Below are positions 2,633 through 41,348 of a stretch of DNA of 64,000 bases, piece after piece. The first letter of the stretch is position 1; every line of letters begins with the position of its first letter. Position numbers and translations under genes: made by a program. Source of the DNA: an uncultured Muribaculaceae bacterium (GTDB lineage Bacteria > Bacteroidota > Bacteroidia > Bacteroidales > UBA932); assembly GCA_964569595.1 (NCBI GenBank), contig CAZMTY010000001.1, positions 19,447-83,446 on the forward strand, in the 5' to 3' direction. The notes beneath the pieces are model-generated. The model saw only the letters and a list, made by a program, of their open reading frames with translations, was not told the DNA's origin and did not search any database.

Positions 2633-3871
2633 TTATATCGCGAGCATCTCTATTGCCTTCTTCAACGATTTCACGAAATATTCTGCCTCCTCTATCGTGT
2701 TGTACGGAGCAAAAGACGCCCTCAACATACCCGTAACCCCATATCTGTCCATAAGCGGTTCCGCACACATCTGCCCTGAACGCAGCGCAATTCCCATTTT
2801 ATCGAGAATGAGTGCCAAATCCTCATGGTGCACATGTTCCACGGAGAACGAAAAGAGCGGAATTTTACTGAACTCGTAGCCTTCGCGAACTCCCGGGTTC
2901 CCATAAAGCCTCAATCCCGGTATGGACTCTAATTGCCCGGTAAGGTAATCGATTAATTGTCCGGAATATTCCCGCATCCCGTCGCCCTCCATTTCCTCCA
3001 TGATTCCGAAAGCCTTGACGAGTGTAGGTATTGATGCAAAGTTTTGAGTACCAGCCTCATAGCGGTGAGGTACAGGGGCGTAAGTAGTTCCCTCCCACCT
3101 TACCGTTTCCACCATTTCGCCTCCTCCCATGTAGGGCGGCAGGGACTCAAGCAAGTCCTTACGTCCATAGAGAACCCCGGTTCCTGGTGCAGCGTACATC
3201 TTATGACCCGAAAACGCATAGAAATCGCAGCCCATAGCCCTCACATCTACAGCTGAATGAACTATACCCTGGGCACCATCTACAAACAGCAGCGAATCTT
3301 TGGCGTGTACAATCTCTGATATGCGAGCAATGGGATTCACGAGTCCGAGGACATTCGAGATATGCGCTACACAAACCATCCTGGTCTTCTCCCCTATCAT
3401 AGAACCCAACTTTTCCAGCTCCAGACGCCCGTCATCATCCACGGGCAGAACTTTCAAAACGGCGTTCTTCCGCTTACACATCATCTGCCATGGAACTATG
3501 TCCGAATGGTGCTCGCTCTGCGCAACGACGATTTCGTCGCCTTCCCTGACGAAAGCCTCTCCGAAGCTGAACGCTAAAAGATTAACAGACGCCGTAGTTC
3601 CTGAAGTAAATACTATTTCCTTAGGGGAATCGGCATTTATACGACGCGCTACTTCCTCTCTTGCAGCCTCATACTCATCTGTAGCCACAGTAGAAATATA
3701 ATGCACTGCCCTGTGTATGTTTGCGCTGTATTTTCCCGAAAGTTCGCTCCATTTGTTTATAACGCACAAAGGTCTGAGCGAAGTCGCGGCATTGTCAAGA
3801 TATACCAAAGGCTTTCCGTGGACTTGCTCCGACAATTGTGGAAATTCTTTCCTGAGCGATATAATATCCAT
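2633..3871 (-). CDS. sufS: cysteine desulfurase, SufS-type class V aminotransferase
   Basis: Contains YLDNAATS, HHSDIVPW, SGHKMYAPGTGVLYG (PLP lysine motif) and RSGQMCAEP (active-site Cys). The track ORF starts at a TTG (3931). I prefer the ATG at 3869-3871 (MDIISLRKEFPQL), the usual SufS N-terminus. Confidence 0.9.
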   Translation of the reverse strand: MDIISLRKEFPQLSEQVHGKPLVYLDNAATSLRPLCVINKWSELSGKYSANIHRAVHYISTVATDEYEAAREEVARRINADSPKEIVFTSGTTASVNLLAFSFGEAFVREGDEIVVAQSEHHSDIVPWQMMCKRKNAVLKVLPVDDDGRLELEKLGSMIGEKTRMVCVAHISNVLGLVNPIARISEIVHAKDSLLFVDGAQGIVHSAVDVRAMGCDFYAFSGHKMYAAPGTGVLYGRKDLLESLPPYMGGGEMVETVRWEGTTYAPVPHRYEAGTQNFASIPTLVKAFGIMEEMEGDGMREYSGQLIDYLTGQLESIPGLRLYGNPGVREGYEFSKIPLFSFSVEHVHHEDLALILDKMGIALRSGQMCAEPLMDRYGVTGMLRASFAPYNTIEEAEYFVKSLKKAIEMLAI

Positions 3872-4185
3872 ATTGAAATTTTCTAATTCCAAGACGGCAA
3901 AATTAACTTTTTTATCTCTATCTACGGTCAATTATTTCGCTTATTTGCTATACCTTGAAATTACACTACAAATCTTCCGGAAATGAACAATCCTTCTACT
4001 GGCTTGCCCTAAACACCGACAGGCCGGGCAGCTGAAACTTATCTCGGAAACGATCACTCTCCCCGGGTTTAAGGCAAAATTGCTGTATTTCCTGGATTTT
4101 CATATAAAGAAATACTCTCAAGAATAGTCTTTGCCCCAACTGAAGCGGTAAAAGAAAACGGAACTGTCTACTTTGGTCTTGAAAC

Positions 4186-4378
4186 CATAAGTGTCCACTA
4201 AAATTTCAGGGCATTCCTTCGAATAAACTGGTCTTCAGTTTGATACAAGCAATTTTATGGAAAACGGACTTAAACTTGACTTTATGGTCATAATCAGGCC
4301 ATTATGTATAGAGACCGGTTTATTTTCGCCCAATTATTAAAGTTTCTTGACTTAGTAAACTCTTAGTGGACACTACTA
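4186..4378 (+). mobile_element. 193-bp MITE-like internal-deletion derivative of an IS4-like insertion sequence with 9-bp target-site duplication
   Basis: Terminal inverted repeats are AGTGTCCACTAA (4190-4201) and TTAGTGGACACT (4363-4374). An identical 9-mer TCTTGAAAC lies immediately outside both ends (4177-4185 and 4379-4387). Inside, ATG 4304 opens a 20-codon stub, MYRDRFIFAQLLKFLDLVNS*. Its xxFAQLLxFL start resembles the DUF4372 N-terminus of IS4-family transposases. No DDE domain remains. Confidence 0.6.
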
Positions 4379-4632
4379 TCTTGAAACATCATTATTGTAC
4401 TTTATGAGCAATGGTGTTTACTTGATTTGAAAGGAGCAAGGCCACAATGAATAGTTTCCAAAGAAAAGGGTGTAATAAACTTCCAAACATCCGGTAACTT
4501 GAGATCTCAAAGATAACTTTTGCTTTCCCTGCTATCTTTTCAGATTATGTCCAGCCATAGACCGCGGATAAAACACTGTCGATACCTGTACTCCTCTTTC
4601 CAAAAATTGTTTAGCACAACTTGCCGCATCCT

Positions 4633-4850
4633 CTTCGGAAACCGCTTACTTCTCTTTAATAAAGCGACTGCTATTTTCCGGAAACCTGACGTATCTTCTC
4701 TAAAAACAGCTCGTATTAATATTCAGACTTGATATATCTTCCCTGAAAACTGCTCCCTTCCTTTTAGAATCTGACTGCTATTTTCCGGAAACCGGCTACT
4801 TCTTCGGAAGCGCTCGCATTTACTTTAAGACTTGAAGCATTTACATCCAA
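4633..4850 (+). repeat. degenerate direct repeats (period ~107 nt) in the sufS/ruvA spacer
   Basis: The exact 21-mer GACTGCTATTTTCCGGAAACC occurs at 4666-4686 and 4773-4793. The following ~60 nt are recognisably similar (..cagacttgatatatcttcc vs ..taagacttgaagcatttacatcc). A third partial unit, tcggaaaccgcttacttctc, sits at ~4635. Confidence 0.6.
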
Positions 4851-4900
4851 ATTCTCTCGCAACCGAGACAGCATTTACACGACATCATACATTTTCCTCC

Positions 4901-5089
4901 ACACGAATTTCATAAACCCGTCTTTGACACTTCATTTAAGAGAAAACGAGGCCTCAGATAACCATGATGGAGATTCTGGGGCTATTCGGATATTACGGGT
5001 ATGTAATGTAATGACGCGGATTTCGTTGTCGGGAGACGGTTCCGCTGAATTGGACTGAATATATTTTCAGCTACACGAATTTCATAAAC
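4901..5089 (+). repeat. pair of 17-nt direct repeats upstream of ruvA
   Basis: ACACGAATTTCATAAAC occurs at 4901-4917 and again at 5073-5089. The second copy sits just upstream of the ruvA -7 box. Confidence 0.6.
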
Positions 5090-5102
5090 TCTCTTTTTTC
5101 TG

Positions 5103-5110
5103 TAAGTTTG
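5103..5110 (+). promoter_or_regulatory. Bacteroidetes-type -7 promoter box (TAAGTTTG) for ruvA
   Basis: Matches the TAnnTTTG consensus and ends 4 nt before the ruvA ATG (5115). Confidence 0.5.
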
Positions 5111-5114
5111 CCCC

Positions 5115-5708
5115 ATGATAGAATACATTTCAGGAAAACTTGCGGAACTTACGCCAACCTCGGCTATCGTCGAAAACAACGGTATAGCTTACTTGCTGGA
5201 AATTTCAGTCCAGACCTACGAACAACTTAACGGAAAGAGCGATGTAAAAATCTTCGTTCAAAAGCAATTTAACCAACGCGACGGCCTGGAAACCGACTAC
5301 GGCTTCGCCACAAGAGAAGAAAGAAGCCTGTTCAGGGCTATCACGAGCGTCAGCGGGATGGGCGCATCCTCCGCCCGAATGATACTTTCCTCCATGAGTC
5401 CGGAAGAACTCCAGAACACAATACTCTCGGAAAACGTCGCAAAACTTAAAGCCATAAAGGGCATAGGTCTCAAAACAGCCCAGAGGCTTATACTTGAACT
5501 GAAGGATAAAATCGTCAAGGGCGGAGAGGGGACATTTGAATCCCTGCTTCACTCGACCACCAACGCTGAGGCGGAAGAAGCTGCAACGGCACTTCAAAAT
5601 CTTGGCTTCAGTAAGCCGAATATATCAAAAGCCATACAGACAATACTTAAAAATAACCCCGAATACAAGGTGGAGGACATCATAAAGGCAGCGCTGAAGA
5701 TGCTTTAA
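5115..5708 (+). CDS. ruvA: Holliday junction branch migration complex subunit RuvA
   Basis: 197 aa. MIEYISGKL...IVENNGIAY N-terminus, the helix-hairpin-helix region LKAIKGIGLKTAQRLILELK, and a C-terminal domain III. Confidence 0.9.
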   Translation: MIEYISGKLAELTPTSAIVENNGIAYLLEISVQTYEQLNGKSDVKIFVQKQFNQRDGLETDYGFATREERSLFRAITSVSGMGASSARMILSSMSPEELQNTILSENVAKLKAIKGIGLKTAQRLILELKDKIVKGGEGTFESLLHSTTNAEAEEAATALQNLGFSKPNISKAIQTILKNNPEYKVEDIIKAALKML

Positions 5709-6529
5709 TCAGAATCTCAACGCATCAATCAGTGAATATGTCTATGGTTCAAATGGAGACTATTTCACGAGCTCCGTCCATAATAAAGGGAGAATTGATT
5801 TCGTTGGCCACCATGATGCAAAATCACAGGAGCGAAATCAACTCCCTTAGTCCGACATCAAAACTAAACGGATTCCAAATCCTGTAAGAGCACAGTGAAG
5901 CAAATCTTCGCAACCGCGAGAATATCCGTTTACAGTAGGTCAGAAGTCTAAATACATCCCCGCCCGCCAATACTATTGACGGCGAAAAAACACACTTACC
6001 CTCACGTACAGGATTTCGATAAACAATTTTTCGCAAAATTATCAAGACCTTGACCCCCTCTACATTTAATTCCGGATTCAAAAGAGGCAAGAAACTATCC
6101 TCTCTGACTACTCCCTAAAATAACTCGAATCGCAGAAAGTGATAAAACACCTATAAGAGAAAATAAACACTTCCGCATATACAGAAACTAAACTCGCTCC
6201 CGATAGAATTTTTAAATAATCGAAAGAAACATTTTCTGTCCGTACAAGAACCGAGGACGCTCACTGAATTCATCCATAATTTTCGCTCGCCTGAATATTT
6301 CGCAGGATAAGAAATTGTGTAGTCTTCCAAATATGATACAACACAAAACACAGCCCCCGCATTTCTTCGAGCCAACGCTAAAAACTTCTATCGAAAACTT
6401 AAATAACCAGTCTACCGGCGAACATCAAGGCAGAAAAGGGGCTACAGGGAAACACGGCGGAAGTGAAAATCGTTTCATCAATAAACAAAACACGACTCAA
6501 AATAATCCGAGTTCAAAGACGAGAAACAA

Positions 6530-8392
6530 TCATCTACCGAAATAGACGAGCAAAACCGAAATATCCGACGGAGAAACTCCAGAGATTCTGGAAGCCTGAG
6601 CTATAGTTGCAGGCTTATACTTTTTCAATTTCTGCCTACACTCTATCGAAAGACCAGAGACCTTTTCAAAATCAAAATTTTCAGGTATAAGCAATCTCTC
6701 CAAGCTATGCAGTTTCTCTGCCGCCCGCAGTTCCCTGTCAATATACGACTTATAGCGTATGGAAATCTCGACACTCTCAATAATTTCCTCTGAAAGTGTT
6801 CCACGTGGAACGATTTTTAAGATTTCAGAAAGTTTAGTCTCATGTCTCTTTGCTAATTCGGCTATCTTTTTCGATTCCGAAATCTCAGCTGAACCTACTG
6901 ACTGAAGATAAGGATTTACCTTGTCAGAGGTAATAAGGGTTGAATGGCAATATTCCTCTAACTCATTGATTAAAGAATATTTATATTCCATTAAACGATA
7001 CCTTTCGTCAGTAGAAAGACCTATAGAATGAGAAATACCGGTAAGACGAAAATCGGCATTATCCTGCCGAAGAATTATCCTGTACTCCGCTCTCGAAGTA
7101 AACATACGGTACGGCTCATCCACGCCCTTAGTCACCAAATCGTCAATAAGAACTCCAATATATGACTGGTCCCTTCCTAAAACCAAAGGCTCCTTGTTAT
7201 GAAGTTTCAGATGCGCATTAATGCCCGCCATTATGCCTTGGGCAGCCGCTTCCTCATAGCCGGTAGTTCCATTCACCTGCCCTGCAAAATATAGATTTTC
7301 AATCGCTCTACTCTCAAGTGTTGCCCGCAGTTGGGTCGGTTCAAAATAATCATACTCTACAGCGTATGCAGGCTTATAAATCCTCACCTTCTCCATTCCA
7401 CTTATCGCATGGAGAGCATCGAGCTGAACCTGCAACGGCAAAGATGAAGAAAAGCCCTGGAGATAATACTCATTCGTATCCCTGCCTTCAGGCTCAAGGA
7501 AGAGCTGATGTGCATCATTATCGGGAAACATCCTCAGCTTATCTTCAATACTCGGACAATACCTCGGACCAATACCATTAATCATCCCGGTAAACAGTGG
7601 CGACTCAGAAAAACCCGTGCGTAAAATCTCATGCACATGCGGATTAGTATGCAAAATAAAACATGGCATCTGAGGATGCTCGCCCTGGACAGCGGAGGGT
7701 CGGTCAAGAAAAGAAAAGCGACCCGGGTTCTCATCACCGTACTGCTTGGGAAAAACAGAAGTATCAATTGAAGAAATATCTATACGCGGAGGAGTCCCCG
7801 TCTTCATTCTCCCCGACCTGATCCCAAAAGAATTTAACTGCTCAGTTATCCCGTAAGAGGCCATCTCACCCAGCCGGCCGCCTTCCATTTTGTGGCGTCC
7901 GATAAAAAGCGAGCCTGAAAGGAAGGTACCGGCGGTCAAAATAACCGCGCGAGATTTAAAAATCGCCCCTGTGGATGTACGTACACCGGAAATTTTTGAA
8001 TTCTCAACGAGAAAAGAAACAGCAGAATCCGCGAAAATATTTAAGTTACAATTAGTTTCAAGCAATTTACGCCATATCGCTGAAAACTGCACTTTATCGC
8101 ACTGAGCCCGGGGACTCCACATGGCTGGACCCTTGGATTTGTTGAGCATACGGAACTGTAAAGTGCAACTGTCCGTGACAATCCCTGTATACCCTCCAAG
8201 CGCATCTATTTCTCTTACTATCTGTCCTTTCGCTATACCCCCGACTGCAGGATTACACGACATTCTTGCAAAGCCTGTCATGTCCATGGACAGGAGAAGA
8301 ACTGAAGAACCCATATTGGCAGCAGCCATCGCAGCCTCACAACCGGCATGACCGCCACCTACGACTATTATATCATAAAACGTCCCGCTCAT
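6530..8392 (-). CDS. mnmG: tRNA uridine-5-carboxymethylaminomethyl modification enzyme MnmG (GidA)
   Basis: Contains FYDIIVVGGGHAGCEAA (FAD fold), NPAVGGIAKGQIVREIDALGG and GPRYCPSIEDK. The track starts at TTG 8398. ATG at 8390-8392 overlaps the ybeY stop (ATGA). Confidence 0.95.
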   Translation of the reverse strand: MSGTFYDIIVVGGGHAGCEAAMAAANMGSSVLLLSMDMTGFARMSCNPAVGGIAKGQIVREIDALGGYTGIVTDSCTLQFRMLNKSKGPAMWSPRAQCDKVQFSAIWRKLLETNCNLNIFADSAVSFLVENSKISGVRTSTGAIFKSRAVILTAGTFLSGSLFIGRHKMEGGRLGEMASYGITEQLNSFGIRSGRMKTGTPPRIDISSIDTSVFPKQYGDENPGRFSFLDRPSAVQGEHPQMPCFILHTNPHVHEILRTGFSESPLFTGMINGIGPRYCPSIEDKLRMFPDNDAHQLFLEPEGRDTNEYYLQGFSSSLPLQVQLDALHAISGMEKVRIYKPAYAVEYDYFEPTQLRATLESRAIENLYFAGQVNGTTGYEEAAAQGIMAGINAHLKLHNKEPLVLGRDQSYIGVLIDDLVTKGVDEPYRMFTSRAEYRIILRQDNADFRLTGISHSIGLSTDERYRLMEYKYSLINELEEYCHSTLITSDKVNPYLQSVGSAEISESKKIAELAKRHETKLSEILKIVPRGTLSEEIIESVEISIRYKSYIDRELRAAEKLHSLERLLIPENFDFEKVSGLSIECRQKLKKYKPATIAQASRISGVSPSDISVLLVYFGR

Positions 8393-8814
8393 CCGCAATA
8401 CTCTCCCCTTTTGGAAAGATAGAAATCTTCCTTCTCTCTCATTACCTTCTTCTCCTCATCCGTGAAATCACCATAACCTGCCAAATGAAGAATTCCATGA
8501 ACCATCACCCTGTCCAACTCATCCTCAAAATCCGTTTGATAAAAGCCAGAGTTATCCTTGACCGTATCAATACTTATAAAGAGGTCGCCGGAAATTTTGT
8601 TTCCAGAGCAGTAATCGAAGGTAATAATATCAGTAAAATAGTCATGCCCAAGATATTTACGGTTCACGTCAAGAATATAGTCATCAGAACAGAAAATTAT
8701 TGATACATCGCCAATTATCCTGCCTTCATCAGAAGCCACGGCACTCAGCCAGCGACGTCTCCACATCCTGCCTCTTAAAACAAAATCAATTTGCTCACTA
8801 AAATAACGGACCAT
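8389..8814 (-). CDS. ybeY: rRNA maturation endoribonuclease YbeY
   Basis: 141 aa with the zinc motif HGILHLAGYGD. It sits immediately upstream of mnmG and is coupled to it. Confidence 0.9.
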   Translation of the reverse strand: MVRYFSEQIDFVLRGRMWRRRWLSAVASDEGRIIGDVSIIFCSDDYILDVNRKYLGHDYFTDIITFDYCSGNKISGDLFISIDTVKDNSGFYQTDFEDELDRVMVHGILHLAGYGDFTDEEKKVMREKEDFYLSKRGEYCG

Positions 8815-8867
8815 AAATAAAATTTTGGCAAATCTACTAAAATATTGGAATTGAAATTAAATATTTC

Positions 8868-8875
8868 TATCTTTG
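8868..8875 (+). promoter_or_regulatory. -7 promoter box (TATCTTTG) for the TonB-family gene
   Basis: TAnnTTTG match 32 nt upstream of ATG 8907. Confidence 0.45.
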
Positions 8876-8906
8876 GCAATTGGAAGAAAATGTAAAACAA
8901 CGAGAT

Positions 8907-9599
8907 ATGGAAGTCAAAAAAACACCAAAAGCCGATCTTAAAAACAGAAGGATTCTGTATGTAGAAATCGGTTTCGTAGTTTCTCTTGGTCTTCTCCTCT
9001 TCGCATTCGAATGGACCAGCACAGAGAAAAAACAGGCGACCCTCGTCGCAGACAATGTAGAACTCATAGAGGAGGAAATTATTCCTATCACCCAGCAGGA
9101 AACTCCCCCTCCTCCCCCTGAAGTACCGAAAATCCCTGTACTTTCAGACCAGATCGAAATCGTGGACGATGACATTCACATTGAGGAAAGCTTCATCAAC
9201 CTCGAGTACGATGCAAACATTGGTGTAGAGATCATGGACTACGTTGAGCAGGTGGCAGAGGAGGCTATCGAAGAGGAAGCCATTCCTTTCATGCTCGTAG
9301 AGGTTAAGCCTACATTCATGGGCGGAGACGCCAACAGCTTCGCGGCTTGGGTAGGTAGAAATCTCGAATATCCTGAGATAGCAAAGGAGAACGGTGTTTC
9401 AGGTCGTGTGATGCTCGAATTTACGGTAATGCCCGACGGAAGCGTTACGAATGTAAGAGTTCTTCGTGGAGTTGACCCTTCACTCGATGCAGAGGCCGTA
9501 CGCGTTGTTTCCAGCTCACCCAAGTGGGAGCCCGGCCGCCAGAGAGACCGCGCAGTAAAGGTAACCTACACCTTCCCTGTAATCTTCCAGCTTAGGTAG
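8907..9599 (+). CDS. energy transducer TonB-family protein
   Basis: Has an N-terminal TM segment (ILYVEIGFVVSLGLLLFAF), a Pro-rich spacer (TPPPPPEVPKIP), and a C-terminal TonB fold (YPEIAKENGVSGRVMLEFTVMPDGSVTNVRVLRGV...AVRVV). The track start 8880 is a TTG, so I prefer ATG 8907 (MEVKKTPKADL). Confidence 0.8.
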   Translation: MEVKKTPKADLKNRRILYVEIGFVVSLGLLLFAFEWTSTEKKQATLVADNVELIEEEIIPITQQETPPPPPEVPKIPVLSDQIEIVDDDIHIEESFINLEYDANIGVEIMDYVEQVAEEAIEEEAIPFMLVEVKPTFMGGDANSFAAWVGRNLEYPEIAKENGVSGRVMLEFTVMPDGSVTNVRVLRGVDPSLDAEAVRVVSSSPKWEPGRQRDRAVKVTYTFPVIFQLR

Positions 9600-9626
9600 T
9601 AGAATCCTTACAAAAGTCATATAACG

Positions 9627-9662
9627 AGTGTCGCCCATGCAAAGGACGACACTTGTTGTATT
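9627..9662 (+). terminator. hairpin terminator after the TonB-family gene
   Basis: AGTGTCG (9627-9633) pairs with CGACACT (9647-9653), followed by TGTTGTATT. Confidence 0.55.
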
Positions 9663-9970
9663 ATAAAGGCATATAAATAAAATGCCTGGAAACTGAAACC
9701 AACAAAGAAAACCAATGACACGAGAAAGCAAGGGACGTAAAAGAAATTTAAACGGTATGTAAAAAACAGATAAACAGGGAGGCAGAAATCAAGCGCAATC
9801 TAAGATTTAAAGCCCGTTTGACAGCCTTATAAACAACTGTAGGGAGAAATTTAGAAGTAACACTAAAAAGCCTTTTGAAGCAAAAGAAACAGGGAAAGCA
9901 TTATAAAAACAGAAGCAAGAAAACAAGTAAAACGAACATACCCTTTCCACAATCAAGAGGGAATCAGCAG

Positions 9971-9978
9971 TATATTTG
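9971..9978 (+). promoter_or_regulatory. -7 promoter box (TATATTTG) for hflX
   Basis: Perfect TAnnTTTG about 50 nt upstream of the hflX ATG (10031). Confidence 0.5.
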
Positions 9979-10030
9979 GGAAATCTGTTCAAATGAAGTA
10001 ATTTTAGAATTCTAACAAGAATAATCCGAT

Positions 10031-11215
10031 ATGGATAATACAAAGAGCAAAAAAGCCGTATTCGTCGGGATTATAAAACAGTACGACGACGAAAGAAAAA
10101 TACTCGAATATCTCAACGAACTTGAATTTCTTGCCCACACAGCCGGGGCTGAAAGCGACAGAAAATTCATACAAAGGGTTGACAAGCCCGAAAAAGCCAC
10201 ATACATAAGGAGCGGAAAACTGGAAGAAATCGCTGCATACTGCGAAGAAAACGATATAGCATATATTATATTCGACGATGAGCTCACGGGTATGCAGCAA
10301 AGGAATATAGAAAAGGTAATCAAGACATCAAGCGTCATAGACAGGACAAGTCTCATCCTCGAAATCTTCTCTCAAAGAGCCAAAACCGCATACGCAAAGA
10401 CTCAGGTCGAACTCGCGAGATACAATTACCTGCTGCCGAGACTTGCAGGAATGTGGACTCATCTCGAAAGACAGCGCGGAGGTATAGGAACCCGTGGCGG
10501 CATGGGTGAAAGCCAGATAGAAATAGACAGGCGTATAGTTAGGGAGAGAATAACCAAACTGAAAGAGGAGCTCAAACGTATTGACAAACAAATGGCTACA
10601 CAAAGAAGCAACAGAGGCGGACTTGTGCGGCTATCCTTAGTCGGCTATACCAATGTAGGGAAATCAACCCTTATGAACCTGCTGTCAAAATCCGACGTTT
10701 TTGCGGAAAACAAACTTTTCGCTACGCTTGATACTACAGTCAGAAAGGTCGTAATAGGCAACGTGCCTTTCCTGCTGAGCGACACCGTGGGATTCATACG
10801 CAAACTGCCTACCCAACTGATAGAAGCCTTCAAAAGCACACTCGACGAGGTACGTGAGGCAGACATACTCATACACGTCGTGGACATCTCACATCCCGAC
10901 TATGAGGAACAAATGGAAGTAGTGGAAAAGACACTGAAAGACATTTCTGCATCCAACAAACCTGTCTATGTAGTATTCAACAAGACAGATGCTTACGCAC
11001 CCTTGGAGTATGATGAATTCTCAATGGAGCCCAGAACGGAGAGACATTTCAGCCTCGAGGAAGTGAAGAACAAATGGATAAAGGAAAAGAAAATACCCTG
11101 TATCTTCATCTCGGCGTTAAAAAAGGAAGGGATAGATAAACTGCGCGACGACATATACAAAATGGTTGCAGAGATACATGCAGGCCGCTACCCCTTTAAC
11201 AACTTCCTGTGGTAG
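10031..11215 (+). CDS. hflX: GTPase HflX
   Basis: 394 aa. HflX N-domain (ELEFLAHTAGA...), then LVGYTNVGKSTLMN (G1), DTVGFI (G3) and FNKTD (G4). Confidence 0.9.
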   Translation: MDNTKSKKAVFVGIIKQYDDERKILEYLNELEFLAHTAGAESDRKFIQRVDKPEKATYIRSGKLEEIAAYCEENDIAYIIFDDELTGMQQRNIEKVIKTSSVIDRTSLILEIFSQRAKTAYAKTQVELARYNYLLPRLAGMWTHLERQRGGIGTRGGMGESQIEIDRRIVRERITKLKEELKRIDKQMATQRSNRGGLVRLSLVGYTNVGKSTLMNLLSKSDVFAENKLFATLDTTVRKVVIGNVPFLLSDTVGFIRKLPTQLIEAFKSTLDEVREADILIHVVDISHPDYEEQMEVVEKTLKDISASNKPVYVVFNKTDAYAPLEYDEFSMEPRTERHFSLEEVKNKWIKEKKIPCIFISALKKEGIDKLRDDIYKMVAEIHAGRYPFNNFLW

Positions 11216-11236
11216 AAATACAAACGAAATTTATGT

Positions 11237-11425
11237 ATTAAGCCCAAATCGGTCGTTAGAATAGCTTATTTCGTAGTCTTGTTTGTAAAGTATTGAAAAC
11301 GAATACATTATAAGTCTAACTTTCAAATGGCAGCCATTAGAAATTAGACTTACAAATCGCTGTTTATCAGTATATTATAACAAGAAACGCAAATAATCAG
11401 CCTCTATTGACCGATTTAGGATTAT
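11237..11425 (+). repeat. ~190-bp nested-palindrome intergenic repeat, copy 1
   Basis: Termini ATTAAGCCCAAATCGGTC and GACCGATTTAGGATTAT are inverted repeats. The two ~90-nt arms are imperfect reverse complements, with an inner stem TAAGTCTAA / TTAGACTTA around AAATGGCAGCCATT. It recurs at 25031-25216 (inverted) and 54779-54855 (half copy). Confidence 0.8.
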
Positions 11426-11468
11426 ACTCCACCTCTGCAGGTAGTGAAGAACGGCGCAATCTAACAAG

Positions 11469-11509
11469 AAAAACGGAAAAGGGGCAGGTCAAAAGTCTCG
11501 ACCTGCCCC
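11469..11509 (-). terminator. rho-independent terminator of frdB/sdhB
   Basis: A perfect 10-bp stem, GGGGCAGGTC / GACCTGCCCC (11481-11490 / 11500-11509), is followed on the minus strand by TTTTCCGTTTTT. Confidence 0.8.
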
Positions 11510-11537
11510 CATAGAATAAACTATAACAGGAAAACTG

Positions 11538-12317
11538 CTACTGTGAGAACTTGGCCTTGAGGAACTCTCTGTTAAGCCTTGCAATGTGAGAAACTGTGAT
11601 ACCCTTAGGACACTCAAGCTCACAAGCACGGGTGTTGGTACAGTTACCGAAACCTAACTCATCCATCTTGGCAACCATAGAGCGGGCCCTCTTGGCAGCT
11701 TCGGGCCTACCCTGAGGCAGAAGAGCAAGAGAACTTACCCTTGCAGCCACGAAAAGCATCGCAGAACCGTTCTTGCAGGTAGCCACACATGCTCCGCAAC
11801 CTACGCAGGCCGCAGCATCCATACTCTCCTCCGCCTTATCGTGAGAAATGAGAATATTATTGGCATCCTGGGCAGCACCTGTACGCACGGAAATGAATCC
11901 GCCAGCCTGCAGAATCTTATCGAAGGCAGTACGGTCCACTACAAGGTCCTTGATTACCGGGAAAGCCGCACTTCTCCAGGGCTCGACAGTAATAGTTGCT
12001 CCGTCCTTGAAATGCCTCATGAAAAGCTGGCAGGTGGTCACATGATCATCCGGACCATGGGCACGCCCGTCAATATAAAGCGAACAGGCACCGCAAATGC
12101 CCTCGCGGCAGTCATGGTCGAAGGAAACGGGACCGCTGCTCTTGCATCCACGTTCCACTGCAACGGGGTCGCAACCTTCCCGAATCAACTGCTCGTTAAG
12201 TATATCAAGCATTTCCAGAAAGGAGGCGTCCTCCTCTATACCTGAAATCTGGTATGTTTCAAAATGGCCCTTGGCCTTGGCGTTCTTCTGGCGCCATATC
12301 TTTAAAGTGAAATGCAT
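11538..12317 (-). CDS. sdhB: succinate dehydrogenase / fumarate reductase iron-sulfur subunit
   Basis: Three Cys clusters: [20 protein letters not shown] and [12 protein letters not shown]. The track start is upstream and overlaps frdA. I prefer ATG 12315-12317 ([10 protein letters not shown]), 4 nt after the flavoprotein stop. Confidence 0.9.
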
Positions 12318-14302: not shown

Positions 14303-15328
14303 TTAAAATAAACTGTTCTCAGCCAAACTGCCTGAGGCGGGGTCTATTCCTAAATGACCGTAAGAAAGGTCGGTCGCTACCCTGCCCCTCTGCGTACGTA
14401 CTATGAAACCCTCCTTGATCAGGAAAGGCTCGTAAACTTCCTCGTAGGTACCCTGATCCTCCCCTATTGCCGTGGCAATGGTATTCGCTCCGACGGGTCC
14501 TCCCTTGAAATTGGTAATAATAGTCCTGAGTATCCTGTTGTCAATGGAATCCAGCCCCCTCGTGTCTATCCTCAGCCTGTCCAATGCGTACTTCGCAATC
14601 TTGAGGTCTATTTTTCCGTTACCTTCCACCTGGGCGAAGTCCCTTACCCTTTTGAGCAGGGAGTTGGCAATACGCGGAGTCCCGCGGCTTCTCAGGGCTA
14701 TTTCCCTCGCCGCATCGCTGTCTATCTCCACTTTCAGTATGCGCGCGCTGCGTCGTACAATCCTCTCAAGGTCGTCAGTATCATAATATTCGAGAGCGAA
14801 GGTAATATTGAACCTCGCTCTGAGCGGAGCCGTAAGCAAGCCGGAACGTGTGGTCGCCCCTACAAGGGTGAAGGGATTCAAGCCTATCCTCACCGACCTG
14901 GCCCCGGGCCCCTTGTCTATCATTATGTCAATCGCATAATCTTCCATAGCCGAATAGAGATACTCCTCCACGTCCGCGGGAAGGCGGTGTATTTCATCTA
15001 TAAAAAGGACGTCACCGCTGTCGAGCGAAGTCAGAAGGCCCGCAAGGTCGCCGGGTCTTGTAAGTACGGGTCCGGAAGTAATCTTGATGTTGGCCCCCAT
15101 CTCGTTAGCTATGATATGTGCGAGAGTGGTCTTGCCCAAGCCGGGAGGGCCGTGGAAAAGAGTATGGTCAAGCGCCTCGCCACGCATTTTCGCGGCCGTG
15201 ACATATATCAAAAGATTGGACACAATCTCCTTTTGGCCAGTGAAATCATGAAGTTCCTGTGGCCGGATAATTCCATCCAAATCCTTATCTTTGCCCTCGT
15301 TTGTGTTATGAGGATTGAATTCTGACAT
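14303..15328 (-). CDS. ruvB: Holliday junction DNA helicase RuvB
   Basis: [11 protein letters not shown] (Walker A), LFIDEIHRL (Walker B), sensor and winged-helix regions. The track start 15343 is TTG, so I prefer ATG 15326-15328 (MSEFNPHN). Confidence 0.95.
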
Positions 15329-15351
15329 AGCGCGCTTAGACAATCGGGCTA

Positions 15352-15359
15352 CAAATATA
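15352..15359 (-). promoter_or_regulatory. -7 promoter box (TATATTTG on minus strand) for ruvB
   Basis: CAAATATA on the + strand is TATATTTG on the minus strand, 23 nt upstream of ATG 15328. Confidence 0.45.
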
Positions 15360-15594
15360 GTCTTTTATTTATAATTTTTGTTGTTTATGTTGGGCCTGTT
15401 GAAATGTTGATGACTCTATTAAGTCTTTATATTTCAATTAATTAGGCAGGATGACAATAGTTGATAAATATGTTGAAAACCTGTGTACGGCGATGTTGAA
15501 AACTTCTGCTCACGGAATTTTGAACAGTCATACCCCGGTTATCAACATACTTATCAACAGGTTTTCAATAATATTTTCGGCTAAATGTTGATAA
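15355..15594. other. cluster of DnaA-box-like 9-mers (TTWTCAACA) with adjacent AT-rich tract; candidate oriC or iteron operator
   Basis: Perfect copies lie at 15471-79 and 15494-502 (TGTTGAAAA), 15539-47 and 15551-59 (TTATCAACA), and 15586-94 (TGTTGATAA). One-mismatch copies lie at 15398-406, 15405-13, 15459-67 and 15562-70. The AT-rich stretch tcttttatttataatttttgttgtttatg lies at ~15361-15390. Confidence 0.45.
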
Positions 15595-18500
15595 GTTCAA
15601 ACAGCTGCGGCATACTGGCGGAGAAGGCGGGAAGGCTGCAGAAAGTGTATTGCCGCGGACTCTTTCTGTCTGCAAAGTGGTTCACGTTAAGCCAGGTGGC
15701 AGAGAAAGGACTGCAACTTGTGATACTCCCCGACAAAGAGAGTGCGGAATACTGTACTTCCGACCTTTACAGTCTCATCGAGGGCGACAGGGTCTTCTTT
15801 CTGCCGGAATCGGGCAAGAATGTGGAGAGGAGCAACTACAAGTCCTCCCTGTCCGTGCAGCGCACCGCCGCCATAGCGAGTATCATGTCGGAAGACGAGG
15901 GTATGCGGGTGGTTGTCAGCTATCCCGAAGCCCTGAGCGAAAGCGTTCCTCCGGTTTCCACCATGAAGGAATCGGTCTTGAAACTGCGTCCCGGCGACGA
16001 AATATCCCATGACGAGATAGTAAGGATACTCTCGTCCGCACGCTTCGAAAGGGCGGATTTCGTATCCGAACCCGGACAATACGCAATCAGAGGCTCTATA
16101 GTCGACATATTCTCGTATTCCAATAATCGCCCGTACCGTATTTCATTCTGGGGCAACGAAATAGAGAAGATAAACCTTTTCGACTGCAATACCCAGCTCT
16201 CCATATCCCAGGAGAACGAAATGAAAATAGTGCCCGACGTCAACAGCTCCGAAGAAGATGATTCCGTCAGTATTTTCAGCATACTCCCCCGTGATACGCT
16301 TGTCTGGTTCGACTCTTTCGACATGTACAGGGATGCGGATTTCATTCCTCTGAGCTCAAAGTTCAAGGCTGTTTACTTCGACACCCCCCTTTCGGAGGAG
16401 GTCAGCGAAGACGGGCAGGTACAGTTCCGTATAGCCCCCCAGCCCTCCTTCAACAAGAATTTCGAAATATTGACCGAAGATATACGCAGCCACCTTGAAC
16501 ACGGCTACAAGGTGAGGATATACGGAGACAAGGAGACGCAGCTCGAAAGGATAAAGTCCATACTTTTCCAGAACGGAGGTCTGATGCCGGAGTTCGTGAA
16601 GGGGAAGACCATACACCGCGGCTTCGTAGACCACGAGAACAGGGTCTGCTGCTATTCCGACCACGAAATCTTCGACCGTTTCCAGAGGGTCAGCATAAGG
16701 CGCAGCGTGGAGAAGAGCGAACAATTGACTATCAACGACCTCAACTCCTTCAATATAGGCGACTATGTGGTGCATATAGACCACGGCGTAGGCGTGTTCG
16801 GAGGGCTCGTGAGGATGAGGGACGACAAGAACCGCATCCACGAAGTCGTGAAAATAACCTACAAGGACGGTGATGTGGTATTCGTGTCCGTACACGCGCT
16901 GAACAAGATTTCCCGTTTCAGGTCCAAGGACGGCGAGCCTCCCCGTATCAACAAGTTAGGTTCCAAGTCATGGAGCACGCTCAAGGCCAGCGCCAAGTCC
17001 AAGGTCAAGGACATAGCCAAGGAACTCATAATGCTTTACGCCAAGCGCCGTGCTTCCAAGGGTTTCGCCTTTTCTCCGGATACCTATCTGCAGGAGGAAC
17101 TTGAATCTTCTTTCATGTACGAGGATACTCCCGACCAGGAAAGTGCTACGGCGGCTGTGAAAAGGGATATGGAGGACGACTGCCCCATGGACAGGCTGGT
17201 CTGCGGAGACGTGGGCTTCGGAAAGACGGAAATAGCCATAAGAGCTGCGTTCAAGGCCGTTACTGACGGCAAGCAGGTGGCGGTGCTCGTACCCACTACC
17301 ATACTTTCACTGCAGCACTACAACACCTTCAGACAGCGCCTGCAGAACCTTGCCTGCAATTTGGAATACGTCAGCCGTCTCAGGACCGCCAAGGAAATCA
17401 AGGACATAAAGCAGCGTTTGCTCTCGGGAGAGATAGACGTGCTCATAGGTACGCACAAGATACTCAGCAAGGAATTCGTGTTCAAGGACCTGGGATTGCT
17501 CATAATAGACGAGGAACAGAAATTCGGTGTCTCCGCCAAGGAAAAGCTCAGGACACTGAAGGCTTCGGTGGACACCCTTACCCTTACCGCCACCCCCATA
17601 CCCAGAACCCTGCAGTTTTCCCTGCTGGGTGCAAGGGACCTCAGCATTATCAACACTCCCCCGCCCAACCGCATTCCAGTCCAGACAGAAATCATACTCT
17701 TCGATGAAAAGGAAATCAGAAGCATCATAAACTACGAGCTCAACCGTGGAGGGCAGCTGTTCTTCCTGCACAACAGGGTTGATGAGCTGGATTCCATATA
17801 TGAAATACTCCACAGGTTGGTGCCGGACATGAAAATAGCCGTGGCCCACGGCCAGATGGAGGCCCGCAAACTCGAAAACATCATGCTGGAGTTCATGCGG
17901 GGCGACTTCGATATGCTTCTCTGCACTACCCTGATAGAGAACGGCCTGGATATACCCAACGCCAATACTATAATAATAAACCAGGCGCAGAAGTTCGGCC
18001 TCAGCGACCTTCACCAGTTGAGGGGACGCGTGGGCAGGTCCAACTTGAAGGCCTTCTGTTACCTCATAGTTCCCCCTCTCGCCAGCATAACCGATGACGC
18101 CCGCAGAAGGCTCAAGGCGATTGAGGAATTTTCTGACCTCGGCAGCGGCTTCAACATAGCCATGCAGGACCTGGATATACGAGGAGCAGGAAATCTTTTG
18201 GGAGCCGAACAGAGCGGTTTCATAACCGAAATGGGCTTCGAGACCTATCAGAAGATACTTTCCGAGGCTATGGAGGAATTGGGAGTGGAGACGGGTATGA
18301 CTACAAGGAACGAGCGGGGCCACTACGTATCCGATTGTACCGTGGAGACCGACCAGCCCGCCCTGATTCCTGACGAATATATAGACGTTACTGCCGAGAA
18401 GATACGTATATACAGGGCCATAGACTCCATGAATTCCGACAGGGAGACCGACAACTACGCCCGCAGGTTGGAGGACAGATTCGGCAAGATGCCTGCCGAA

Positions 18501-18776
18501 CTGGAGAATCTGCTCTACGTCGTAAGGATAAGGAATGCCGGTGCGTCAATGGGCTTCGAGAAGGTTATAGTCAAGAACGGCCTGCTGATAGCTTTCTTTG
18601 TCTCCAACCCCATGTCGCCTTACTATAAGTCGGAGAGCTTCGGGAAACTCGTGACGAAAATCTCCGCCTCGCCCGGCAGCCTGGAAATGAAGCAGAGCGG
18701 CACCCAGCTGAAGCTGATAGCCAGAAATGTGAAATCCCTGAAACAGGCTTACGACATTTTGGATAACTTAAGATGA
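15585..18776 (+). CDS. mfd: transcription-repair coupling factor Mfd
   Basis: 1063 aa. UvrB-homology N-region, RNAP-interaction domain (DYVVHIDHGVGVFGGL), helicase motifs GDVGFGKTE and IIDEEQKFG, and a TRG/relay region. Confidence 0.95.
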   Translation: MLISSNSCGILAEKAGRLQKVYCRGLFLSAKWFTLSQVAEKGLQLVILPDKESAEYCTSDLYSLIEGDRVFFLPESGKNVERSNYKSSLSVQRTAAIASIMSEDEGMRVVVSYPEALSESVPPVSTMKESVLKLRPGDEISHDEIVRILSSARFERADFVSEPGQYAIRGSIVDIFSYSNNRPYRISFWGNEIEKINLFDCNTQLSISQENEMKIVPDVNSSEEDDSVSIFSILPRDTLVWFDSFDMYRDADFIPLSSKFKAVYFDTPLSEEVSEDGQVQFRIAPQPSFNKNFEILTEDIRSHLEHGYKVRIYGDKETQLERIKSILFQNGGLMPEFVKGKTIHRGFVDHENRVCCYSDHEIFDRFQRVSIRRSVEKSEQLTINDLNSFNIGDYVVHIDHGVGVFGGLVRMRDDKNRIHEVVKITYKDGDVVFVSVHALNKISRFRSKDGEPPRINKLGSKSWSTLKASAKSKVKDIAKELIMLYAKRRASKGFAFSPDTYLQEELESSFMYEDTPDQESATAAVKRDMEDDCPMDRLVCGDVGFGKTEIAIRAAFKAVTDGKQVAVLVPTTILSLQHYNTFRQRLQNLACNLEYVSRLRTAKEIKDIKQRLLSGEIDVLIGTHKILSKEFVFKDLGLLIIDEEQKFGVSAKEKLRTLKASVDTLTLTATPIPRTLQFSLLGARDLSIINTPPPNRIPVQTEIILFDEKEIRSIINYELNRGGQLFFLHNRVDELDSIYEILHRLVPDMKIAVAHGQMEARKLENIMLEFMRGDFDMLLCTTLIENGLDIPNANTIIINQAQKFGLSDLHQLRGRVGRSNLKAFCYLIVPPLASITDDARRRLKAIEEFSDLGSGFNIAMQDLDIRGAGNLLGAEQSGFITEMGFETYQKILSEAMEELGVETGMTTRNERGHYVSDCTVETDQPALIPDEYIDVTAEKIRIYRAIDSMNSDRETDNYARRLEDRFGKMPAELENLLYVVRIRNAGASMGFEKVIVKNGLLIAFFVSNPMSPYYKSESFGKLVTKISASPGSLEMKQSGTQLKLIARNVKSLKQAYDILDNLR

Positions 18777-18814: not shown

Positions 18815-19543
18815 ATGGCGAACCTTCTCGTTTTGACAGGAAACACGGCTATCAAGGCTGCCTGGTCTGACGGTACGACACTCGGAAAGACTTTCCGCTA
18901 TCAGGGAGAAAAGAGGATGGAATACCTCCTGTCCCTGACGGAAAAGGAGAAGCCCGAAGTCCTCACGATTGCTTCCGTATATCCCATATCGGAGGAGGAA
19001 GAACGCTTATTCAGAGCCGAGTGCGGGCATCTTCTGATACTTGACAGCAACCACACCAACTACCTGCTCAAGTACGATTTTCCCGAATATCTTTCCTGCG
19101 ACAGGGCTGCGGGACTGATAGCTGCGAGATTCCTGTTCAAGGGCAAGAGCTGCACCGTGTTCGACTTCGGCACTACCCTGACCGTGGATTTCCTGAATTC
19201 TGACGGAAGGTATATGGGTGGCAACATCTCCCCCGGATGCCGGACGAGGTTCAAGGCGCTGAACCGCTATTCCAAGGCCCTGCCCCTTGTGGATACGCCG
19301 GAGAACATATTGCCCGAGGGGAACTCCGTAACCTCGTCGATTGAGACGGGGGTGATTTTGGGCATAATGTTTGAAACGGAGGGCTACATTCGCCAAAAAC
19401 CGGATAATATTGTGATTTTTACCGGTGGAGATGCCATTTATTTTGCCAAGAAGATGAAAAACTCCATTTTTGTGGTTTGTAATCTGGAATTGATGGGTCT
19501 TGCCCTGATAACTGATGGATATGTCAACAAAAACATCAAGTAG
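18815..19543 (+). CDS. coaX: type III pantothenate kinase
   Basis: 242 aa. LVLTGNTAIK start, FDFGTTLTVD and GGNISPG, the ASKHA-fold motifs of CoaX. Confidence 0.85.
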   Translation: MANLLVLTGNTAIKAAWSDGTTLGKTFRYQGEKRMEYLLSLTEKEKPEVLTIASVYPISEEEERLFRAECGHLLILDSNHTNYLLKYDFPEYLSCDRAAGLIAARFLFKGKSCTVFDFGTTLTVDFLNSDGRYMGGNISPGCRTRFKALNRYSKALPLVDTPENILPEGNSVTSSIETGVILGIMFETEGYIRQKPDNIVIFTGGDAIYFAKKMKNSIFVVCNLELMGLALITDGYVNKNIK

Positions 19544-31981: not shown

Positions 31982-32007
31982 TACTTGAAGTGTAAATGAT
32001 TTGCCCG

Positions 32008-32025
32008 CAAATTTAAGCAAACTTA
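32008..32025 (-). promoter_or_regulatory. tandem -7 promoter boxes (TAAGTTTG, TAAATTTG on minus strand) for the YeiH-like gene
   Basis: CAAATTTA (32008-15) and CAAACTTA (32018-25) on the + strand are both TAnnTTTG on the minus strand, 27-44 nt upstream of ATG 31981. Confidence 0.45.
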
Positions 32026-32219
32026 AAAGTATTAGCAAATTAGCCGTTCCGCGGGGCACGGGACAGGGGAGAGTCTGAAGGTCAAAAGTCCTGAAGGGGG
32101 ACCGCAACCGTAGGAAGCGAGATCCCCCTGACAGGGGCTTGAGACGGCCCCAGAGTGAAAGCACCCCCGTACGGGCGACACGGGAGGGCCGGGAAAAGAC
32201 CGGAGAGGAAGGCCGTATT

Positions 32220-35180: not shown

Positions 35181-35184
35181 CGAA

Positions 35185-35192
35185 CAAATGTA
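35185..35192 (-). promoter_or_regulatory. -7 promoter box (TACATTTG on minus strand) for the 986-aa gene
   Basis: CAAATGTA on the + strand; only 4 nt separate it from ATG 35180. Confidence 0.45.
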
Positions 35193-35233
35193 ACATTTTT
35201 TGCATAACTTTACCGACCAACTCTGTGCGGCAG

Positions 35234-36205: not shown

Positions 36206-36225
36206 CCATAATAAACAAGAACGCT

Positions 36226-38069: not shown

Positions 38070-38094
38070 ACCTGCAGTAAACAAACTCTTGTCC

Positions 38095-38622: not shown

Positions 38623-38641
38623 GCGGAACTTCCGAAAGGAC

Positions 38642-41233: not shown

Positions 41234-41348
41234 TTTATCAAAGTTCGATGAATGTCATATTCAATATTTGCCCTTAATGACCGGAATTTGCCGGATTCCC
41301 GCCCCTGTTCCCGCTTTGTTTCTCCTGAACAAGAGGCCTCCCGGTGAC

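Follow-up and report, generated by a model that had tools for sequence, protein, structure and literature searches.

The 256-bp spacer between the divergent genes ruvB and mfd, contained in a 64,000-nt stretch of DNA (the window, numbered from its first letter), is probably the chromosomal replication origin (oriC) of a Cryptobacteroides-like Bacteroidales lineage. A candidate oriC at this place was the original prediction, and it is supported, but not proven, by the conservation of a box array, canonical DnaA boxes in one relative, a tandem box pair shared with dnaA-dnaN spacers, a geometry like that of E. coli oriC, a nearby skew switch and a parS-like site. The spacer, its flanking genes and the parS-like site show the following features:

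6797-6812, no strand assigned: parS-like palindrome TGTTCCACGTGGAACG inside mnmG; 0.01 matches expected by chance; context, outside the array
14303-15328, minus strand: ruvB, read to the left, away from the array; matches the NCBIfam RuvB equivalog at 491 bits (cut-off 282)
15350-15359, minus strand: TACAAATATA (reverse complement TATATTTGTA), presumed promoter of ruvB, whose ATG is about 24 nt downstream; invariant in 14 of 14 aligned spacers
15360-15391, plus strand: T-rich, nearly C-free AT tract, candidate DNA-unwinding element, 5' of the tandem boxes on the same strand; column conservation 0.70
15392-15396, no strand assigned: GGGCC junction from the AT tract to the first box, as read from the sequence
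15397-15413, plus strand: tandem DnaA-box pair TGTTGAAAT / TGTTGATGA, one-mismatch copies at 15397-405 and 15405-13 with a 1-nt overlap; nearest to the candidate unwinding element
15459-15467, plus strand: DnaA box AGTTGATAA, one mismatch; conservation 0.77
15471-15479, plus strand: DnaA box TGTTGAAAA, exact; the least conserved box, 0.60
15494-15502, plus strand: DnaA box TGTTGAAAA, exact; conservation 0.88
15518-15526, minus strand: weak DnaA box TGTTCAAAA, one mismatch, first of the leftward set; conservation 0.65
15539-15547, minus strand: DnaA box TGTTGATAA, exact; TGTGGATAA in L009 at the aligned position
15551-15559, minus strand: DnaA box TGTTGATAA, exact, 12 nt from the preceding box; TGTGGATAA in L009 at the aligned position
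15562-15570, minus strand: DnaA box TATTGAAAA, one mismatch, 11 nt from the preceding box; conservation 0.86
15586-15594, plus strand: DnaA box TGTTGATAA over the mfd start codon, exact; ATGTTGATAAG encodes M-L-I-S; conservation 0.90
15585-18776, plus strand: mfd, read to the right, away from the array; matches the NCBIfam Mfd equivalog at 924 bits (cut-off 800)

The exact motif TGTTGAWAA/TTWTCAACA shows five copies in 124 bp of the spacer, against seven in the entire 64-kb window. Dinucleotide shuffles of the window gave a mean of 1.06 exact copies and a maximum of four, and seven copies were reached by none of 100 shuffles. When one mismatch is allowed, the spacer contains 10 boxes in 198 bp (five exact and five with one mismatch) and the remaining 63.8 kb contains 32 matches, which gives the spacer a density about 100 times that of the background. 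Five rightward boxes (15397-15502) are followed by four leftward boxes (15518-15570), and the spacing in the array is roughly one helical turn, 11-12 bp. The spacer motif is one base from the canonical TTATCCACA, and the 11-mer ATGTTGAAAAC is present in two copies, 23 nt apart. Most of this had been described in the original prediction, which located all five exact copies (15471-79, 15494-502, 15539-47, 15551-59 and 15586-94), the repeated 11-mer and a motif density unmatched elsewhere in the window, five of the seven exact copies being in the spacer. It also listed four one-mismatch copies: three were placed correctly, the first lies at 15397-405 instead of 15398-406, and a fifth, at 15518-26, was overlooked.

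The array was compared in 14 genome loci of relatives, with RuvB identities of 72-87% and 13-21 kb for each locus; one relative's RuvB (P0025) is on contigs of 1.4-2.2 Mb, covered 10 kb to each side. The divergent ruvB-mfd synteny is kept in all of them (L001-L013 and L084), the array is present in the ruvB-mfd spacer of these 14 loci and of six metagenome loci, and in each of the 14 the best 300-bp box cluster of the 13-21 kb read is this spacer. Counted from the ruvB ATG, boxes are found at about 72>, 80>, 134>, 169>, 193<, 214<, 226<, 237< and 261> (> rightward, < leftward) in nearly all 14, so that the check proposed with the original prediction, whether related Bacteroidales keep the array in this spacer, came out in its favour for positions and orientations alike. 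Column conservation is 0.81 for the boxes and 0.52 for the other spacer positions (Mann-Whitney p = 2e-19). The tandem pair at 15397-15413 shows the most conserved boxes, 0.91 each, and is present in 14 of 14 relatives. The start-codon box of L002 and L007 is ATGTTGAAAAC, in which the W degeneracy is respected and residue 3 of mfd changes from I to K; the alignment of the mfd N-terminus to its relatives begins at residue 1. Position 4 of the box is T in 89 of 98 cases and G in eight, and the lineage consensus is TGT[T>G]GAWAA. The ruvB loci of other Bacteroidota (L014-L016) do not show such boxes, which indicates that the array is not a general ruvB operator.

By their sequence, the spacer boxes are the equivalent of canonical DnaA boxes, and DnaA presumably binds them. 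Three observations lead to this identification: the boxes are kept at the same positions and in the same orientations in 14 relatives while the DNA between them drifts, L009 shows the canonical TGTGGATAA at aligned box positions, and the tandem pair recurs between dnaA and dnaN in two other bacteria, L099 and L114. The 17-mer tandem pair of the family is TGTTGAAAWGTTGATAA, from which the window copy differs at one base. Both L099 and L114 carry the exact 17-mer in their dnaA-dnaN spacer, close by the start of dnaN; DnaA and DnaN were confirmed at these loci, and neither ruvB nor mfd is present. L114 is a Patescibacterium, and both are unrelated to the lineage of the window. Their boxes are arranged rightward and then leftward, as in the spacer, and L099 also contains TAG-TAG-TAA-TAG trios 5' of the pair (TAGTAGTAATAG). 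The 17-mer gave 80 metagenome matches, most of which are isolated chance matches in AT-rich DNA.

Next to the tandem pair, nearest-neighbour energy places the fragment 15349-15389 among the two least stable 40-mers of the window. The AT-rich stretch that the original prediction placed beside the array is real by stability, though not distinctive by AT content alone, since 14 window regions equal its 30-bp value. The length of the tract is constant at about 37 nt in the 14 relatives, and it consists of about 52% T versus about 30% A, with almost no C. The junction between tract and first box is variable in the relatives, of 4-6 nt and G/C-richer, and L114 shows GGGTC at the equivalent place. 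On the other side of the tract, the invariant TATATTTGTA fits TAnnTTTG, presumably the Bacteroidetes -7 promoter motif, and the tandem pair is about 45 nt upstream of this ruvB element. The tract is also the upstream region of the ruvB promoter, which is an ordinary alternative explanation for its AT richness. A sigma-70 promoter and terminator scan, ill-suited to Bacteroidetes promoters, performed no better than shuffles, and no mfd promoter was identified. Rfam showed no structured RNA in the spacer; its sole match in the whole window is one tRNA. The criterion for DnaA-trios was three or more 3'-NAN-5' repeats, ideally 3'-GAT-5', no more than 16 bp from a box and on its strand (PMC8287927). 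Classical trios of 3'-NAN-5' repeats are absent from the box strand, on which A does not recur with a 3-nt period in the 14 sequences compared. 5' of the tandem pair, this strand reads ...TTGTTGTTTATGTTGGGCC and is T-rich, with TT[A/G]T motifs.

The gene context agrees with the original prediction for the identities of ruvB and mfd, both well above their NCBIfam cut-offs, for the 256-bp spacer, for mnmG at about 7 kb and for a flip of gene orientation at the spacer, which the gene strands on both sides bear out. To the left, the minus strand carries folK, two Fe-S genes, a sufS-like gene, mnmG, ybeY, frdB, frdA and ruvB, with ruvA, tonB and hflX as the only plus-strand genes; to the right, every gene from mfd through galK reads on the plus strand. 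mnmG occupies 6530-8398, and this gene and its parS-like site, both taken as markers of a nearby origin, are 7-9 kb from the spacer. A 21-nt stretch at the site is identical in L084, although DNA identity between the two mnmG genes is only 73.5%. No match to dnaA was found in the window or in loci L001-L086 (tblastn with an E. coli DnaA query), which is consistent with the published separation of oriC and dnaA, commonly distant from each other in Bacteroidetes (PMC4755523).

Strand composition points to the same part of the window. On both sides of the spacer, the genes that read away from it are richer in G than those that read towards it. On the left side, the coding-strand GC skew is 0.118 for genes reading away from the spacer versus 0.011 for those reading towards it; on the right side the values are 0.028 and -0.006, respectively. 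The fit gets better when a breakpoint of origin polarity is allowed (permutation p = 1/2000 for total skew, 11/2000 for GC3). The best-fit breakpoint is at 8.8 kb, with a residual sum of squares (RSS) of 46.5 for total skew and 147.8 for GC3; the next local RSS minimum, at 15.46 kb, gives 51.6 and 170.6, against 76.3 for total skew under the null model. The gene-direction-corrected switch of origin polarity is thus located only to about 8-19 kb in the 64-kb window, and the cumulative skew minimum of the window is at 14-18 kb. An alternative origin at the 8.8-kb breakpoint or in the spacer at 9.6-10.0 kb was rejected, as neither holds box clusters. No other box cluster was found in the 8-19 kb switch zone or in the 14 related loci.

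If the spacer acts as an origin, DnaA would bind the ten boxes of consensus TGT[T>G]GAWAA, and the five rightward and four leftward boxes would organise two DnaA sub-complexes facing each other. The T-rich, C-free tract of 37 nt (15360-15396) abutting the tandem pair would melt; the DnaA oligomer would keep hold of its T-rich strand, which is also the box strand, in the way known from E. coli, and helicase loading would follow. The invariant ruvB promoter element is on the far side of the tract, so leftward ruvB transcription would add negative supercoiling and help melting, as has been proposed for gidA at E. coli oriC. DnaA occupancy of the tenth box, on the mfd start codon, may damp mfd expression, as for mioC in E. 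coli. A more specific version, offered tentatively and rather doubtful, is a Bacteroidales-type origin without DnaA-trios, in which the single-strand ligand would be the T-rich strand, C-free and of fixed length, and the boxes, with their preference for T rather than G at position 4, would double as ruvB/mfd operators, coupling initiation to the supply of RuvB and Mfd. In such an origin the mfd start codon incorporates one of the boxes, and the unwinding tract forms a unit with the ruvB promoter; RuvB would take part as a fork-reversal helicase and Mfd would resolve transcription-replication conflicts.

The rival reading that fares best is a DnaA-box cluster that is not an origin, that is, a titrating or recharging locus or a DnaA-dependent operator of ruvB and mfd, with the true oriC elsewhere, perhaps within about 10 kb. 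In its operator version, ruvB and mfd transcription would be tied to the initiation cycle. This reading is unlikely, although it accepts that the boxes are DnaA boxes, and non-origin DnaA-box clusters of similar size are present in other bacteria (E. coli datA and the B. subtilis DnaA-box clusters). The box over the mfd start codon and the pair about 45 nt upstream of the ruvB -7 element are at typical control positions, but the ruvB loci L014-L016 lack such boxes, and the arrangement seen here, two opposed sets with ten boxes in all and, outside the tandem pair, a conserved tract of low stability, is the architecture of an origin. The absence of DnaA-trios and the best fit of the skew breakpoint at 8.8 kb and not at 15.4 kb favour a cluster of the non-origin kind, whereas elsewhere, in dnaA-dnaN origins, the 17-mer pair is found on the unwinding side. 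No second cluster appears in the 8-19 kb zone or in the 14 related loci, in a box census that spans only 64 kb here and 13-21 kb per relative.

An iterated operator for a non-DnaA regulator, such as a repressor that responds to DNA damage or stress and acts on both repair genes, is very improbable. Both neighbours, ruvB and mfd, act in DNA repair, but the tandem pair is found in dnaA-dnaN spacers of unrelated phyla without either gene, and a single base separates the motif from the canonical DnaA box, which L009 shows at the same positions. Some boxes form inverted pairs, such as ACTTATCAACA (15549-59) with TGTTGATAAGT (15586-96), but ten sites over 200 bp far exceed usual repressor operators. 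The Bacteroidetes SOS motifs described are CTAA-N5-TTAG and GGA-N5-TCC, palindromes upstream of repair genes, and the order Bacteroidales reportedly lacks their regulators (PMC8565304). CTAA-N5-TTAG was not found in 15329-15594 even when one mismatch was allowed, and GGA-N5-TCC was not found in the spacer by reading its sequence. The DNA-damage operator, given as an alternative in the original prediction, consequently finds no support, the motif being a DnaA box and the published SOS motifs being missing from the spacer. A chance product of AT-rich, low-complexity intergenic DNA, suggested by an AT-rich spacer and an A/T-rich motif, is refuted by the 100 shuffles, none of which reached seven exact copies, and by box positions and orientations kept across 14 species in which the intervening DNA is 52% conserved. 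Plasmid-type iterons, which are direct repeats of 17-22 bp in one orientation by a rep gene, were also discarded: the units here are 9-mers in both orientations. The window proteins scanned include no Rep, and the array neighbours are ruvB and mfd.

The replication origin proposed here would belong to a well-known class of elements that has yet to be mapped in this Bacteroidales group. Literature searches, with the Ori-Finder 2022 and DoriC 12 papers among the sources, found nothing specific on ruvB and mfd as the gene context of a Bacteroidales oriC, and a full-text literature search for TTATCAACA gave no relevant match. If the reading is correct, it locates the origin of replication in a group of gut and rumen Bacteroidales that is abundant but uncultured, it gives a landmark for orienting and closing metagenome-assembled genomes and for growth-rate estimates from peak-to-trough read depth, and it provides origin finders with the lineage-specific consensus TGT[T>G]GAWAA. 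The E. coli box that these programs use by default, with one mismatch, detects only part of the array. The spacer would be a well-conserved addition to the poorly described Bacteroidales origins, away from dnaA and apparently without classical DnaA-trios, and it leaves the general understanding of origins unchanged.

Compared with E. coli oriC (mnmG/gidA-mioC), whose sequence and flanks were verified, the spacer shows the same left gene transcribed away and a T-rich strand 5' of a same-strand, TGTGGATAA-oriented R1 box. In both cases the box array follows and its box farthest to the right is inverted (R4), the right-hand neighbour gene is in contact with a DnaA box as well, and mnmG is nearby, here at 7 kb. 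The spacer differs in a box consensus with T and not G at position 4, in the absence of GATC clusters and 13-mer repeats, and in its flanks, ruvB and mfd, where the right gene reads away from the array and not into it. The B. subtilis-type basal unwinding system (boxes 6/7, GC spacer, DnaA-trios and AT-rich region; PMC8287927) shares with the spacer a tandem pair at the edge, a GC-richer junction and an AT tract, in the same orientation, and the L099 and L114 loci, of the basal-unwinding type, share the tandem 17-mer pair with the spacer family, the window copy being one base off. However, the box strand of the spacer is T-rich instead of showing a 3'-NAN-5' periodicity, and the array is not beside dnaA or dnaN. 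The predicted Bacteroidales origins (DoriC/Ori-Finder: Prevotella intermedia OMA14, PMC4755523; P. gingivalis W83, PMC8287927) resemble the spacer in multiple DnaA boxes, a GC-skew transition, located in the window only to about 8-19 kb, and a position far from dnaA, except that the predicted oriC of P. gingivalis is placed next to dnaA. The predicted oriC of P. gingivalis W83 carries 5'-TGTTGAAAA-3' (PMC8287927 supplement), and the DnaA-trio calls in the predicted P. intermedia and P. gingivalis origins are weak. The datA and DARS1/2 loci of E. coli and the DnaA-box clusters of B. subtilis are similar to the spacer in having several intergenic DnaA boxes, able to bind many DnaA molecules and to influence nearby promoters. 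These are loci of the DnaA-titrating or -recharging type. They have no adjacent unwinding element and are away from the strand-composition switch, whereas the ruvB-mfd spacer has an unwinding-type tract, which is also the upstream region of the ruvB promoter, and a switch nearby, placed only to about 8-19 kb.

The genes ruvB and mfd diverge from a 256-bp spacer, read directly from the sequence, which probably is the oriC of this uncultured Bacteroidales lineage. The region shows, from left to right:

14303-15328, minus strand: ruvB (NCBIfam equivalog model, well above the cut-off)
15350-59: TACAAATATA, invariant across the aligned spacers, 24 nt upstream of the ruvB ATG
GGGCC: short GC-richer junction between the T-rich tract and the tandem box pair
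15585-18776, plus strand: mfd (NCBIfam equivalog model, well above the cut-off)

The 64-kb window contains seven exact matches to TGTTGAWAA, against a mean of 1.06 and a maximum of four in dinucleotide-preserving shuffles of the window, and five of the seven are in the array (15471, 15494, 15539, 15551 and 15586). Five one-mismatch copies are located at 15397, 15405, 15459, 15518 and 15562, and all boxes lie within 198 bp. The remaining 63.8 kb show 32 matches with up to one mismatch, so that the array is about 100 times denser than the background. The five perfect copies of the original prediction were all recovered by pattern search, as were its repeated 11-mer and inverted pairs; its four one-mismatch copies are present, one of them at 15397 instead of 15398, and the copy at 15518 had been overlooked.

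At the left edge of the array region, ruvB is transcribed leftwards, and TATATTTG, the reverse complement of TACAAATATA, fits TAnnTTTG, which we take to be the Bacteroidetes -7 promoter motif. To the right of TACAAATATA there is a tract of constant length, about 37 nt, whose plus strand nearly lacks C in 14 species (T about 52%, A about 30%). This AT-rich tract also forms the DNA upstream of the ruvB promoter, and 15349-15389 ranks among the two least stable 40-mers in the whole window. Beyond the junction, the boxes are ordered as the tandem pair, three further rightward boxes, four leftward boxes at 11-12 nt spacing and a final rightward box, which is fused with the mfd start codon (ATGTTGATAAG). 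In two relatives (L002 and L007) this last box reads ATGTTGAAAAC; the variation stays within the box degeneracy but replaces I by K in the protein, which suggests selection on the start-codon box as a DNA site.

Relatives were sought by a RuvB scan, with one genome per species. The closest, with 72-85% RuvB identity, are uncultured Bacteroidales labelled Candidatus Cryptobacteroides, a genus placed in Bacteroidales incertae sedis, or just Bacteroidales. The divergent ruvB-mfd order is kept in all of the relatives' loci L001-L013 and, with the same neighbours on either side, in L084, on a 1.4-Mb contig. In every relative locus (13-21 kb each) the best-scoring 300-bp window of DnaA-like boxes is the ruvB-mfd spacer; the same scoring showed no box cluster in the ruvB loci of other Bacteroidota and other phyla. 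Counted from the ruvB start codon, the boxes recur at about 72>, 80>, 134>, (146>), 169>, 193<, 214<, 226<, 237< and 261> (> rightward, < leftward), with identical orientations in nearly all species. Box columns of the spacer alignment have a conservation of 0.81 and other spacer columns of 0.52 (Mann-Whitney p = 2e-19), a clear phylogenetic footprint at the boxes. The original prediction had named the orthologous spacers as a check, and the array is retained in these Bacteroidales.

The array motif differs by one base from the canonical DnaA box. In the alignment, the relative L009 shows canonical TGTGGATAA/TTATCCACA at exactly the positions of TGTTGATAA/TTATCAACA in the window. The 98 boxes of the 14 spacers have T at position 4 in 89 cases and G in eight, with A and T about equally frequent at position 7, giving the family consensus TGT[T>G]GAWAA. 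In Porphyromonas gingivalis W83, the predicted box beside the putative unwinding site is 5'-TGTTGAAAA-3' (PMC8287927 supplement). Metagenomes were scanned for exact matches to the relatives' tandem pair, TGTTGAAAWGTTGATAA, a 17-mer. Further ruvB-mfd spacers were found in L088, L089, L098, L146, L150 and L163. In L099 and L114, the latter belonging to Patescibacteria, the 17-mer is inside the dnaA-dnaN spacer and directly adjoins the dnaN start (DnaA and DnaN verified with NCBIfam). Both show rightward and then leftward boxes, like the window array, and in L099 classical DnaA-trios, TAG-TAG-TAA-TAG, precede the pair. In other bacteria, this tandem pair is thus the DnaA-box pair on the unwinding side of origins at the textbook position, and these matches are the strongest evidence that the array motif is a DnaA box. 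In L114 (1783-1840) the junction 5' of the 17-mer, GTTTATTATGGGTC, resembles GTTTATGTTGGGCC of the window, from a different phylum, a likeness that may stem from convergence or from an ancient module common to both. Several unrelated metagenome contigs (L140 361-386, L158 474-499, L160 and L123) carry three box-like 9-mers in tandem, TGTTGAAAGTGTTGAAATGTTGATAAC, after a T-rich run and beside the end of a putative IS3-like transposase gene (judged by eye from the translated ORF); this may be a mobile-element end carrying DnaA boxes.

The conserved boxes, the canonical boxes of L009, the dnaA-dnaN tandem pair and the low-stability tract support the original candidate oriC as a probable one. The same boxes could form a cluster that is not an origin and titrates DnaA or regulates ruvB and mfd, which we consider unlikely. 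The operator of a damage regulator, originally offered as the alternative, finds no support: known Bacteroidetes SOS motifs are missing from the spacer, Bacteroidales are reported to lack the regulators of these motifs (PMC8565304), and the motif pair occurs in L099 and L114 without repair genes nearby.

Cumulative GC skew is lowest at 14-18 kb. Since raw skew tracks gene direction, per-gene skew was regressed on orientation and on the side of a breakpoint. Including a breakpoint with origin polarity strongly improves the regression (total GC skew, permutation p = 1/2000; third-codon-position skew, 11/2000). Its profile is flat over about 8.4-18.8 kb, with the best residual sum of squares (46.5; ruvB-mfd spacer 51.6, null model 76.3) at 8.8 kb, in the ybeY-tonB spacer, so that skew alone does not fix the origin at the ruvB-mfd spacer. 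On both sides of the ruvB-mfd spacer, genes directed away from it have a G-richer coding strand (left, 0.118 versus 0.011 for genes reading towards it; right, 0.028 versus -0.006). No box cluster was found at 8.8 kb or elsewhere in the switch zone outside the array. The other least stable 40-mer (8830-8871) is exactly at the best-fit breakpoint, lacks DnaA-like boxes and probably represents no more than a divergent promoter region. G+C is 42-48% at 3000-12000 and 55-57% at 32000-51000, with housekeeping genes throughout, a step which may distort the skew analysis.

Two origin-proximal markers, mnmG and a parS-like palindrome, are 7-9 kb left of the spacer:

6797-6812, inside mnmG: parS-like palindrome TGTTCCACGTGGAACG (0.01 chance matches expected)

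This is one base off the ParB-site consensus TGTTNCACGTGNAACA. The 21-nt stretch containing it is identical in L084 (palindrome at 19111-19124), synonymous positions included, at an mnmG DNA identity of 73.5%, which suggests a functional ParB site within the coding sequence. No dnaA was found in the window or in loci L001-L086, in agreement with the Bacteroidetes oriC being commonly far from dnaA (PMC4755523); the Prevotella intermedia origin was located from skew and DnaA boxes (PMC4755523). In the window, as in L084, ruvA (5115-5708) and ruvB are 9 kb apart on opposite strands, not in the usual ruvAB operon. Two ORF-poor gaps, 3932-5114 (1.18 kb) and 5709-6529 (0.82 kb), contain no convincing reading frame and match no Rfam family. 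Nor do they resemble the syntenic stretch of L084, in which only 2 bp separate mnmG from ruvA; an unknown RNA, decayed genes or non-coding DNA specific to the lineage may account for them. A tRNA-Met (54912-54986) is flanked by two 704-aa GTPase genes of the EF-G family (52511-54625 and 55344-57458), which lie on opposite strands.

The spacer would provide a landmark for genomes of this lineage, and its box consensus a correction to the one used in predicting origins. The candidate is probably an oriC with E. coli-like geometry and a T-at-position-4 box variant, located between ruvB and mfd and not beside dnaA; an oriC of this type is in principle unsurprising. The Bacillus-type basal unwinding system needs 3'-NAN-5' trios on the box strand (PMC8287927), whereas the box strand of the window, ...TTGTTGTTTATGTT-GGGCC, shows no 3-nt periodicity of A across 14 sequences and so no classical DnaA-trios; published trio calls in other Bacteroidales are likewise weak (PMC8287927 supplement). 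All but one of 5,426 E. coli genomes (5,425) contain the E. coli oriC sequence, as a rule once per chromosome and in at most two places, the best-matching records at 100% identity; it is flanked by mioC and by mnmG, which is transcribed away from it. There, the strand that carries R1 (TGTGGATAA) has T-rich 13-mers 5' of this box and the far-end R4 is inverted, and the window array follows the same polarity logic.
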